Virus record (IMG/VR): IMGVR_UViG_2718218131_000002
DNA length: 64,000 bases
From: a virus
Taxonomy: Duplodnaviria; Heunggongvirae; Uroviricota; Caudoviricetes
Direction: 5' to 3' (one strand)
Both the position numbers and the translations under genes were made by a program. Shown one piece after another: positions 13,949 to 16,540 of this stretch. Below the pieces are notes generated by a model. That model had not been told where the DNA came from and did no database searches. It saw only the letters and a program-made list of their open reading frames with translations. Each line of letters starts with the position of its first letter. Positions within the stretch are counted from its first letter, which is position 1.

Positions 13949-14024
13949 GGCCCTTTAGCTCAGTGGTGAGAGCGAGCGACTCATAATCGCCAGGTCGCTG
14001 GTTCAAATCCAGCAAGGGCCACCA
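13949..14024 (+). tRNA. ileZ: tRNA with CAT anticodon (Ile2/Met type; ileZ-like)
   Basis: Cloverleaf GGCCCTT...AAGGGCC-ACCA, anticodon loop CTCATAA, T-arm GGTTCAAATCC. Confidence 0.8.
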
Positions 14025-14031
14025 TCACATA

Positions 14032-14108
14032 CCGCCATTAGCTCATCAGGAAAGAGCGCCAGCCTTCGAAGCTGGTTGCGCGGAGTTCGGGTCCCCGAAG
14101 GCGGTCCA
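14032..14108 (+). tRNA. argN: tRNA-Arg (anticodon TCG), imperfect stems
   Basis: D-arm GCTC/GAGC, anticodon stem CCAGC/GCTGG with loop CTTCGAA, 3-prime CCA; one acceptor and one T-stem mismatch. Confidence 0.5.
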
Positions 14109-14121
14109 TTATCTGTATCCT

Positions 14122-14198
14122 GCGTTGTTAGCTCAGCCGGACAGAGCAATTGCCTTCTAAGCAATCGGTCACTGGTTCGAATCCAGTACAACGCGCCA
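14122..14198 (+). tRNA. argO: tRNA-Arg (anticodon TCT)
   Basis: Acceptor GCGTTGT/ACAACGC, anticodon loop CTTCTAA, T-arm GGTTCGAATCC, CCA end. Confidence 0.8.
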
Positions 14199-14211
14199 CA
14201 CTTATTTTCCC

Positions 14212-14238
14212 TGGCTCGCTTTTGCGGGCTTTTTTTTA
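14212..14238 (+). terminator. Putative terminator after the tRNA cluster
   Basis: GC-rich imperfect hairpin followed by a T8 run. Confidence 0.4.
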
Positions 14239-14686
14239 AATGTCTCACAATTCAGGCGGTTGACTGTTGTCTGGTTTGCGGGGAGTTTGTTAAAAGAAAC
14301 TGGCATGGTGAATCCCCCTGTGCGGAGGGGCAATCAGCGAGTAGGTATATGGGATAATCGCGGATTCAGGTGCTGGTACTGAATTCACCGGGAGGCACCC
14401 GGCACCATGCAATGGCACATAGCGCCACTCTCCAGCCCCTCTCCGGAGGGGCTTTCTTATGGACAAAAAAAGCCCGCGCTGGGAGACGCGGGCGGCAAGG
14501 AATAAACAACAAAACGTGAAGTAATATTTCAGCTGGCGAATAATATCCGACAGTAATCACTCTGCGCAATAGCGCGGCCTTTTTCGTATTGCGGGCCGTT
14601 GTCTCTCTTCTGCCATTGTCCTGTAACTTCCGGACTTCAGCCCGCTCCTCATTTTACTCACAATATTATCCCGGCCGGGAGGATTC

Positions 14687-16540
14687 ATGGCATTTAAACA
14701 CTATGATGTTGTCAGGGCGGCGTCGCCGTCAGATCTTGCGGAAAAGCTGACACATAAACTGAAAGAGGGCTGGCAGCCGTTTGGTAGTCCGGTGGCCATA
14801 ACCCCTTATACTCTGATGCAGGCGATTACAGCAGAAGGTGATGTGGTGGTCAGTGGTGCAACTGAGCCGGATTGGTACTACGTCATCGTACTGGCCGGGC
14901 AGTCCAATGCCATGGCTTACGGTGAAGGGCTTCCGCTGCCGGATTCATACGATGCTCCGGATCCGCGCATTAAACAGCTGGCGCGCCGCAGTACAGTGAC
15001 GCCGGGTGGGGCTGCCTGCAGATATAACGATATTATTCCGGCCGACCACTGCCTGCATGATGTGCAGGATATGAGTACGCTGAATCATCCGAAGGCAGAC
15101 CTGAGCAAAGGGCAGTACGGCTGTGTCGGCCAGGGCTTACATATTGCCAAAAAACTGCTTCCGTATATCCCGAATAACGCGGGGATCCTGCTGGTACCAT
15201 GCTGTCGTGGTGGTTCGGCATTCACCCAGGGCGCGGAGGGGACATTCAGTGCGGACACGGGGGCCAGCCAGGATTCGGCACGCTGGGGTGTGGGTAAACC
15301 GTTATATCAGGACCTGATTGCGCGCACTAAAGCTGCATTACAGAAGAACCCGAAAAATGTGTTGCTGGCGGTGTGCTGGATGCAGGGAGAGTTTGACATG
15401 AGCGCCGCCACCTACGCACAGCAACCTGCGCTGTTTACAGCCATGCTGAAGCAGTTTCGTGCTGACCTCACTGTGTTTAACGCGCAGTGTCATGGTGGCA
15501 GTGCTGCAGATGTGCCGTGGATTTGTGGTGACACGACGTATTACTGGAAAAATACATACGCTACCCAGTACGACACCGTGTACGGAGGGTATAAAAACAG
15601 GGAGAGTGAGGGCGTTTATTTTGTGCCCTTCATGACAGACGGTAACGGCGTCAATACCGCCACTAACGCGCCGGCAGAAGATCCGGATATTCCGGCATCA
15701 GGATATTACGGTGCGGCATCGAGAACGAATGGAAACCAGGTATCATCAAACCGCCCGACACATTTCAGTTCATGGGCGCGCAGGAGCATTATTCCGGATC
15801 GTCTGGCAACCGCTATTCTGAACGCAGCCGGGCGCACCTCAGCCTTCATCAGTGGTAAGGCACCGGAAATCAAACCCTCGCCCGGCGGCAACACGCCATC
15901 GGGTCCGTCTGCAGATACGTCCGTTCGCACAATCTCCCTGCTGCCGGCAGCCGGAGAGGCTGCTGCGCAGGGCTGGAGCATTAAGGATGGCGGAATTCAG
16001 TTGTCAGATGGTGTATTTAAGATCACCAAGCAGAGCAATAAAACCTGGTCCCTGACGCATCCGGTGGATGACGCAATTACCCTGCTGACACAGGGCGGCA
16101 GACTGACCTGTAAGTTCCGCCTGTCAGGCGCACTGACCAACAATCAGTTCGGGCTGGGGATTTATCTGTATACGGATGCTCCCGTTCCTGATGGTGTGGC
16201 GATGACGGGTACCGGTAATCCGTTCCTGATGTCGTACTTCACTCAGACCACTGACGGCAGAGTGAATCTGATGCATCACAGGAAAGCCGGAAACACGAAG
16301 CTGGGGGAGTTCGGCGATTACGGTAACGACTGGCAGACGCTGGAGCTGGTGTTCACCGCCGGCAGTGCCACGGTTACTCCGAAACTGAATGGAGTGGCTG
16401 GCCCGGCATTCCAGGTTATAAAAGACAGTCTGACACTGGGACTGAATGCGCTGACGCTGACGGATGTTACAAAAAATGCAGCGTATGGCGTTGAGATAGA
16501 AAGTCTGGTGCTGGAGATAAATGCACCGGCATCATCATAA
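14687..16540 (+). CDS. nanS: Prophage sialate O-acetylesterase (NanS-p family; DUF1737 N-terminus + SASA domain)
   Basis: 617 aa; [11 protein letters not shown] esterase motif; this protein sits downstream of stx in Stx phages. Confidence 0.8.

Follow-up and report, generated by a model that had tools for sequence, protein, structure and literature searches.

An ordinary late-gene region of a Shiga-toxin-free prophage, with a predicted convergent small RNA pair between its tRNA genes and nanS-p

When a stretch of phage DNA lacks a convincing open reading frame (ORF) at the place where Shiga toxin (Stx) phages carry their toxin genes, has a toxin been lost from it, or has one yet to arrive? 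The question is raised by positions 13949-16540 of a 64,000-nucleotide stretch of tailed-phage DNA (Caudoviricetes; IMG/VR record IMGVR_UViG_2718218131_000002; hereafter the window). A preliminary description saw there a DNA methylase, three tRNA genes and a nanS-p esterase gene in the arrangement of Stx phages, and read the roughly 490 bp between the last tRNA and nanS-p as an empty stx position in an stx-negative relative, either a precursor or a derivative that had lost the toxin. We conclude, with a probability of about 0.9, that this is the ordinary late-gene region, at the start of the late operon, of a Shiga-toxin-free lambdoid Escherichia coli prophage of the kind of Sp4 and Sp9 in the O157:H7 strain Sakai. 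Its order runs from a Q-like antiterminator gene through a small ORF, a methyltransferase gene, the tRNA genes ileZ, argN and argO, the argO terminator, a convergent pair of small RNA (sRNA) genes and nanS-p to the holin and lysis genes. Identities, coordinates, breakpoints and prevalence were established directly. Every component, as well as the arrangement, was already known from the Sakai annotation, Tree et al. 2014, Pearl Mizrahi et al. 2021, Rfam and a 2026 preprint on Pas and STnc100 RNAs. The argument turns on the following features:

13949-14024, plus strand: tRNA gene with anticodon CAT, probable ileZ type (tRNA-Ile2)
14032-14108, plus strand: tRNA-Arg gene (TCG), argN type
14122-14198, plus strand: tRNA-Arg gene (TCT), argO type
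14213-14237, plus strand: intrinsic terminator after argO (hairpin 14213-14230)
14237-14240, no strand: actual insertion point of cargo (stx), unoccupied
14274-14464, plus strand: STnc100-family sRNA gene (EcOnc27/sRNA103 type)
14465-14646, minus strand: convergent sRNA gene, predicted to encode an Hfq-binding RNA (EcOnc08/21/42 type)
14687-16540, plus strand: nanS-p, prophage sialate O-acetylesterase of 617 amino acids (aa)

The place where toxin genes enter this layout is narrow. Homology to Sakai Sp5 and to Stx2a and Stx2c phages ends at 14236 and resumes at 14241, and the same left breakpoint, 14236, is found in Stx2c, Stx2d and other Stx2 phages. In Stx2 phages the 4-bp interval is taken up by about 1.35 kb, made up of the stx2 promoter region, stx2A, stx2B and about 45 more bases; this cassette has a G+C content of 44%, lower than the 51-56% of its flanks and in keeping with inserted cargo. 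The left flank is 91% identical to Sp5 over about 440 bp up to 14236, and the right flank is 86% identical to Stx2a phages over the approximately 480 bp of 14241-14720. In the Stx2a phage Stx2_14040, the spacer between stx2B and nanS-p (511 bp, compared with 488 bp in the window) is homologous to 14241-14686 throughout; in Sp5 the homology is limited to 14241-14411 and 14562 onward, since a different sRNA, AsxR, is the convergent partner there. The 490 bp are a conserved non-coding module that lies 3' of the toxin where a toxin is present. The proposal that this gap is a vacated stx position was not borne out, since the cassette site measures 4 bp and the spacer lies 3' of stx2B in Stx2_14040.

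No stxA or stxB lies between the tRNA genes and nanS-p, and no remnant of stx1 or stx2 was found in the whole window by blastn (word size 7) or by tblastn with the Stx proteins; the searches matched just the flank fragments 14206-14236 and 14241-14267. The flanks and the order of Q, tRNAs, [stx], sRNA, nanS-p and lysis genes are those of Stx2 phages, and they also occur in stx-free prophages. The region can thus be called an stx-negative relative of the Stx-phage late module, as had been proposed, given that its flanks are homologous to both stx2 flanks and that stx remnants are absent from the window.

What, then, occupies the spacer? The interval 14199-14686 contains only short overlapping ORFs on both strands (58-93 aa, judged without a protein-family scan), and in the RefSeq record that is 100% identical over window positions 12800-16600 it bears just a 126-nt pseudogene fragment. 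The preliminary description was right about the missing ORF but not about the emptiness: the 488 bp are nearly filled by a terminator and two convergent sRNA genes. The terminator, recovered by a terminator scan, has the form GGCTCGC-TTTT-GCGGGCT followed by T8, and is kept in Stx2 phages, 3' of argO and upstream of stx2A. The plus-strand sRNA gene matches Rfam family RF02076 (STnc100) at 138 bits (E 1e-31) over the full length of the model, positions 1-206 of 206, exceeding the gathering score of 47. An RNAalifold consensus of six prophage copies (the window, a Stx2a phage, Sakai Sp5, Sp9 and Sp10, and a Stx1a phage) has 44 pairs, 6 of them with compensatory changes on both sides, and the terminator scan places a plus-strand, terminator-like hairpin at the end of the gene (14434-14453).

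A consensus promoter scan found no clear STnc100 promoter. Read by eye, the sequence offers a putative -10 element, TTAAAT (14236-14241), which would place the start near 14246-14247. In Sp5 this hexamer aligns with TGTAAT, and taking TGTAAT as the -10 there gives an RNA of 233-234 nt, which fits the reported EcOnc27 band of about 235 nt. EcOnc27, the Sakai Sp5 homologue, is Hfq-bound, with two bands at about 235 nt and 247 nt (PMC4104026 supplement), and STnc100 has been placed directly 3' of stx2B and equated with, or described as overlapping, EcOnc27/sRNA103 (PMC12370729, PMC12711010). By homology to EcOnc27, STnc100 is likely to be a discrete Hfq-associated RNA here as well.

On the opposite strand, the RNA read from 14646 to 14465 is identical at 179 of 182 bases to an RNA of enteropathogenic E. 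coli (EPEC) E2348/69 (NC_011601 1444797-1444978, minus strand). The EPEC RNA is named E2348C_1409.E2348C_1408.IGR, and its homologues EcOnc08/21/42 in enterohaemorrhagic E. coli were noted by Pearl Mizrahi et al. (PMC8550237, table S6). It had 37 interactions in RIL-seq, a method that ligates and sequences interacting RNAs, with the target motif GGCA(A/G)GG; its chimeras involve the cfa 5' untranslated region (UTR; 767), the gene E2348C_3965 in the enterocyte-effacement locus (LEE) and further mRNAs, and this motif is present in tir (PMC8550237). The seed CCUUGCC (14500 to 14494) and the terminator stem are identical in the two RNAs. The sole three differences, at 14480, 14595 and 14597, fall once in the terminator loop and twice in the body, leaving the stems and the seed unchanged. 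The terminator scan finds the minus-strand terminator at 14493 to 14472 followed by U7, the promoter scan a promoter-like site at 14693 to 14665, and the fold z-score is -2.4 to -2.8. Two peaks of Hfq cross-linking and analysis of cDNA (CRAC) in Sakai Sp4, EcOnc08 and EcOnc21, map to window positions 14467-14539 and 14545-14630, and both belong to one Sp4 RNA of about 271 nt in O157 Sakai. By analogy with the EPEC homologue, the window's minus-strand sRNA may bind Hfq and act on targets in trans. The EcOnc08-type segment (14455-14565) is present in 991 of 5426 complete E. coli genomes and also in Stx2_14040.

Such pairs are a recurrent trait of the site. At the "moron" site 3' of PR', pairs of sRNA genes facing each other were reported by Tree et al. 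2014 (PMC4104026) for Sp3, Sp4, Sp5, Sp9, Sp10, Sp11, Sp15 and Sp17, with EcOnc27 and AsxR forming the pair 3' of stx2B in Sp5. We also considered whether the minus-strand hairpin could be AsxR itself, and rejected this, as the Rfam AsxR and AgvB models gave no match at E <= 10. The conserved 3' region of about 42 nt shared by AsxR, AgvB and EcOnc03 (GTATCTCATGC..TTGCCCGAACCCA.TCGGGC) was not found in the window by blastn-short; the same type of search found it in Sp5, Sp9, Sp10, a Stx1a phage and PPyecE. Kinship with PasA, PasC or PasD was likewise set aside after blastn of 14199-14690 and 16541-16700 against the PP2 loci of E2348/69 gave no match; according to the preprint, the kinship of PasD with STnc100 is structural only.

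How unusual is a junction without cargo? A 209-bp probe (14122-14330, at least 80% covered) detects the unoccupied junction in 1023 of 5426 complete E. coli genomes (19%), including the type strain ATCC 11775 (100% identity) and strains of O157:H7, O145:H28 and O111:H8. A comparable probe spanning argO, the terminator and the start of stx2A detects the stx2-occupied junction in 592 of the 5426, and the unoccupied junction is the commoner state in E. coli. In the phage collection it occurs in just three records (Nil3, PhiR49_2 and 611R1), a scarcity that we read as sampling bias towards Stx phages. Other cargo is found at this point or close to it: Sp10 carries a TerB-like gene between 14236 and 14285, PPyecE_EH1910 has a toxin-antitoxin-like pair and a TerB-like gene between methylase and nanS-p (tRNAs are not annotated there), and Sp9 has 29 extra bases at the junction.

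Two prophages show the module altered. In PP6 of E2348/69 (7100-8651), the insertion sequence (IS) ISEc13 splits STnc100 at the equivalent of 14318-14325 with an 8-bp target duplication (CTGTGCGG); the minus-strand sRNA is intact and expressed there, making this locus a naturally occurring knockout of a single member of the pair. In the PK8241 prophage beside potB, the methyltransferase gene lies almost directly before the holin gene and the block 13869-16784, with tRNAs, sRNAs and nanS-p, is missing (L014 10092-10289), so that this block behaves as one optional cassette.

These observations bear on the other ways in which the locus could be explained. To regard the 488-bp spacer as inert intergenic DNA would agree with the want of a convincing ORF and with the lone pseudogene fragment in RefSeq, but it is hardly credible in view of the full-length Rfam match, the compensatory base-pair changes, the near-identity to loci where Hfq-bound RNAs have been mapped on both strands, and three terminator-like hairpins in the expected orientations. 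Descent from a Stx2 (or Stx1) phage whose toxin operon was lost in a recent precise deletion is a more specific proposal: both flanks are homologous to stx2 flanks, the junction is clean within 4 bp, and a short A/T-rich resemblance between the two ends of the cassette (TTTTTTATAT... and ...GTGTAATCTG) could support microhomology-mediated loss. We nevertheless judge it highly improbable. No stx remnant was found in the window, and the identical unoccupied junction recurs in the 1023 genomes, among them non-Stx-producing strains and the species type strain. Among the Stx phages in the collection, none is close on both flanks: identity to Stx2 phages is 90-92% on the methylase-tRNA side, and identity to Stx1a phages is 97% on the nanS-p side, only from 14562. 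Moreover, Sakai has Sp4, with this layout, alongside its Stx2 prophage Sp5, and Sp9 is organized likewise. A recent precise deletion is unnecessary as an explanation.

The converse idea, that the locus is a ready acceptor or "precursor" into which a Stx2 phage, whether co-resident or infecting, could bring the cassette by homologous recombination across the tRNA/terminator flank on one side and the sRNA/nanS-p flank on the other, draws on the length and identity of the two flanks relative to some Stx2a phages (about 440 bp at 91% on the left and about 480 bp at 86% on the right), on the different cargoes seen at the same point, and on the generation of new Stx phages by recombination between prophages (reviewed in PMC8065619). 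It describes something that might happen to the locus rather than what the locus is; the sequence bears no mark of Stx-phage ancestry, and the prophage, with three IS insertions, looks decayed. As an account of this region we consider it very unlikely. The choice between precursor and loss therefore has nothing specific behind either side, because the unoccupied layout, also present in stx-free Sp4, is the common default of a known cargo ("moron") insertion site. Two findings had been named in advance as speaking against the earlier view, a spacer unlike stx-flanking sequence and the presence of the module in phages without stx; the spacer does resemble the stx flanks, and the module is nevertheless common in stx-free prophages.

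If the region is indeed an ordinary late region of a Shiga-toxin-free prophage, its working can be outlined from near-identical loci. Upon induction, Q-modified RNA polymerase would read from the late promoter into nanS-p and the lysis genes, passing the terminators at 12354-12378, 12686-12703, 14213-14237 and 14434-14453. In the lysogen, both sRNAs would probably be made from their own promoters and, to judge from RIL-seq in EPEC, may use Hfq to act in trans on mRNAs of host and virulence genes. NanS-p, by analogy with characterized alleles, would remove 9-O-acetyl groups from sialic acids and render them usable for growth.

The tRNA genes would contribute to the translation of prophage genes. 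Exactly three were predicted by ARAGORN in the 64-kb window, with the anticodons CAT, TCG and TCT given in the preliminary description, and the Rfam tRNA model agrees (72.5 bits for the first). The CAT tRNA is typed as Met(cat) by ARAGORN, as tRNA-Ile by RefSeq and as ileZ in the Sakai annotation of Sp4, Sp5 and Sp9, and it is predicted to be read as Ile after lysidine modification; the two tRNA-Arg assignments agree among ARAGORN, Rfam, RefSeq and the Sakai annotation. Together the three would decode AUA, AGA/AGG and CGA-type codons, which appear enriched about 1.7-fold in the genes of a near-identical prophage, that of strain EC-107 (NZ_CP043217). ATA, AGA, AGG, CGA and CGG together amount to 39.6 per 1000 codons in the EC-107 prophage versus 23.8 in core genes, the latter a small sample of 16 genes adjoining that prophage, and the same five codons reach 68 per 1000 in stx2AB. 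The codon table uses EC-107 coordinates and is valid up to window position 21731, beyond which EC-107 carries a related, non-identical structural module.

A further role of the minus-strand sRNA can be imagined. Its putative promoter overlaps the nanS-p start codon and its transcript would be antisense to the entire nanS-p leader; if the species of about 271 nt is real, it would also be antisense to the first nanS-p codons. The sRNA could therefore act in cis too, pairing or colliding with read-through transcription, which would prevent expression of nanS-p and the lysis genes in the lysogen. We think this unlikely, and mention it for what it would entail: EcOnc08-type and AsxR/AgvB-type partners would be interchangeable insulator cassettes beside a cargo-capture point.

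Several points weigh against our reading of the region or should temper it. The minus-strand RNA has a length of 182 nt by RNA-seq in EPEC versus about 271 nt by northern blot in Sakai. The 5' ends of both sRNAs are uncertain, the plus-strand -10 element and transcription start being a reading of the sequence, and expression of the sRNAs in this strain is presumed from near-identical loci. For a trans function of STnc100 in E. coli, the backing consists of an overexpression effect and predicted pairing only. The codon comparison draws on 16 core genes and a related strain's prophage rather than on the window's own genes. The late promoter escaped the consensus promoter scan. Finally, the prophage has the three IS insertions, and the integrase is frameshifted in the closest complete genome for the left part; Q-driven late expression may consequently no longer occur, and the prophage may be non-inducible.

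The genes around the module complete the late region. The following features lie upstream of the tRNA genes and downstream of nanS-p:

11711-12277, plus strand: Q-like late antiterminator gene, 188 aa
12354-12378, plus strand: candidate tR'-like intrinsic terminator
12502-12699, plus strand: small conserved phage ORF, 65 aa
12686-12703, plus strand: terminator-like hairpin after the small ORF (terminator scan)
12850-13908, plus strand: DNA N6/N4 methyltransferase gene
16541-16655, plus strand: structured intergenic region with a strong terminator (16623-16651 and T-run)
16690-16905, plus strand: class II holin gene, first of the lysis cassette

The Q-like product matches PF06576 (DUF1133, E 4e-105), weakly PF06530 (Phage_antitermQ, E 6e-8), and phrog_753, "anti-termination protein Q-like". 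The roughly 100 nt after its gene (12278-12378) end in a hairpin, GCCCGC-TTTTT-GCGGG, followed by T7; lying about 80 nt 3' of the gene, this hairpin is a putative tR'-like terminator. Lambdoid phages make a short PR'-tR' transcript at this place, known as 6S RNA in lambda and as StxS in Stx phages. An Rfam search returned no family match for 12278-12378. The small ORF corresponds to the RefSeq coding sequence WP_000917751.1 in a near-identical record and to phrog_331 (E 5e-37). The methylase seen earlier through its DPPY motif is a member of the N6/N4 methyltransferases: its product matches PF01555 (E 6e-44) and the DNA methyltransferase families phrog_67/6025, and its translation contains DPPY as motif IV at residues 34-37 (...LIVTDPPYF...) and an FxGxG-type S-adenosylmethionine-binding motif, DFFMGSGST, near residue 300, towards the C-terminus.

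The identification of NanS-p also proved correct. The product combines a DUF1737 N-terminal domain, a SASA/SGNH esterase core in which a GQSN block can be read, and a lectin-like C-terminal domain (DUF6645); its structural matches are 3pt5, the NanS/YjhS esterase (E 2e-122), and 6yp6, the C-terminal domain of NanS-p (E 9e-30), and it shows 56% identity to ECs_1207, the Sp5 homologue of NanS-p, across 564 aligned residues. Esterase activity on 5-N-acetyl-9-O-acetylneuraminic acid (Neu5,9Ac2) has been shown for EDL933 and O104:H4 prophage alleles (PMC8065619), and nanS-p occurs in Stx and non-Stx prophages (PMC8065619, PMC10462455). The region that follows it, 16541-16655, has a fold z-score of -2.9, carries a terminator found by the terminator scan, and shares 96.9% identity with its counterpart in E2348/69 PP6; a further sRNA, or an RNA derived from the 3'UTR, could be encoded here. 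The gap between nanS-p and holin is where the PasA and PasC sRNAs lie in other prophages, and blastn of 16541-16700 found no similarity to the PasA region of E2348/69 PP2. The holin gene follows the annotation of the near-identical RefSeq record, with its ATG read at 16690.

The window as a whole is a mosaic. The EC-107 prophage next to a tRNA-Ser gene and mtfA matches positions 1-21731 at 99.99% identity, the PK8241 prophage next to potB matches positions 17537-60072 at 99.6-100% identity, and no single record with both parts was found in the complete-genome collection. Assignments of espJ and sodC by way of EC-107 were dropped, as their translations failed and BLAST matches EC-107 to 1-21731 only. 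The IS elements comprise an IS3-family element (20345-21558) with frameshifted orfA/orfB, an IS21-family element (28997-31635; IstA-like and IstB, ORFs 29118-30764 and 30538-31536) among the head genes, and, near the tail-fibre genes, an IS30-like element (45442-46511; ORF 45501-46502). Compared with PK8241, the second and third of these are insertions. Decay of the prophage is probable. After the tail-fibre genes, all on the minus strand, are an EspO-like gene (46886-47161), the type III effector gene espK (47222-48583) and the chromosomal potB (48946-49809), which marks the right prophage end. These names come from the 100% identical PK8241 annotation, and a Pfam search gave no match for the EspO-like and EspK products.

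Our results carry a practical lesson for the reading of phage genomes. An ORF-free gap beside phage tRNA genes should not be taken for a vacated toxin site: in lambdoid E. coli prophages such a gap is densely packed with non-coding elements, a terminator and a convergent pair of Hfq-dependent sRNAs, that phages with and without a toxin share, and the point where cargo really enters spans only a few bases. In surveillance, the synteny of methylase, tRNAs and nanS-p is no marker of present or past stx carriage.

Among known systems, Sp4 of Sakai resembles the window in having ileZ1-argN1-argO1 and the same type of nanS-p (ECs_1088) with stx absent, at 96.6% identity over window positions 13932-16552. 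Its spacer of 489 bp is identical to the window at 485 of 489 positions and carries the Hfq-bound EcOnc08/21/42. Sp4 differs upstream of the tRNAs, where a gene for a CAAX-protease-like protein and one for an AraC-type regulator take the place of the methyltransferase gene, and in its antiterminator. Sp9, also without stx, is collinear with window positions 11600-16944 in a single alignment at 88% identity, with a DUF1133-type antiterminator, the small ORF, the methylase, ileZ3, argO3, nanS-p (ECs_1781) and the holin; it lacks argN, however, and its convergent partner is EcOnc03, of the AsxR/AgvB anti-sRNA family, rather than the EcOnc08 type.

The toxin-carrying counterparts follow the same plan. 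Sp5, which we take to be 933W-like, and Stx2_14040 have the tRNA cluster, the argO terminator, the STnc100-type sRNA (EcOnc27) and nanS-p in the same order, and Stx2_14040 additionally shares the methylase and the window's minus-strand sRNA segment. Both differ from the window by the stx2AB cassette of about 1.35 kb in the 14237-14240 interval, and Sp5 further by AsxR as convergent partner and by a NanS-p only 56% identical. PP6 of EPEC E2348/69 differs in the ISEc13 copy in its STnc100 gene, in the lack of a methylase and in having two annotated tRNAs; it shares the Q gene, tRNA-Ile, tRNA-Arg, a spacer 99.2% identical over 14318-14690 and a nanS-p-like gene, and is the site at which the minus-strand sRNA was detected by RIL-seq.

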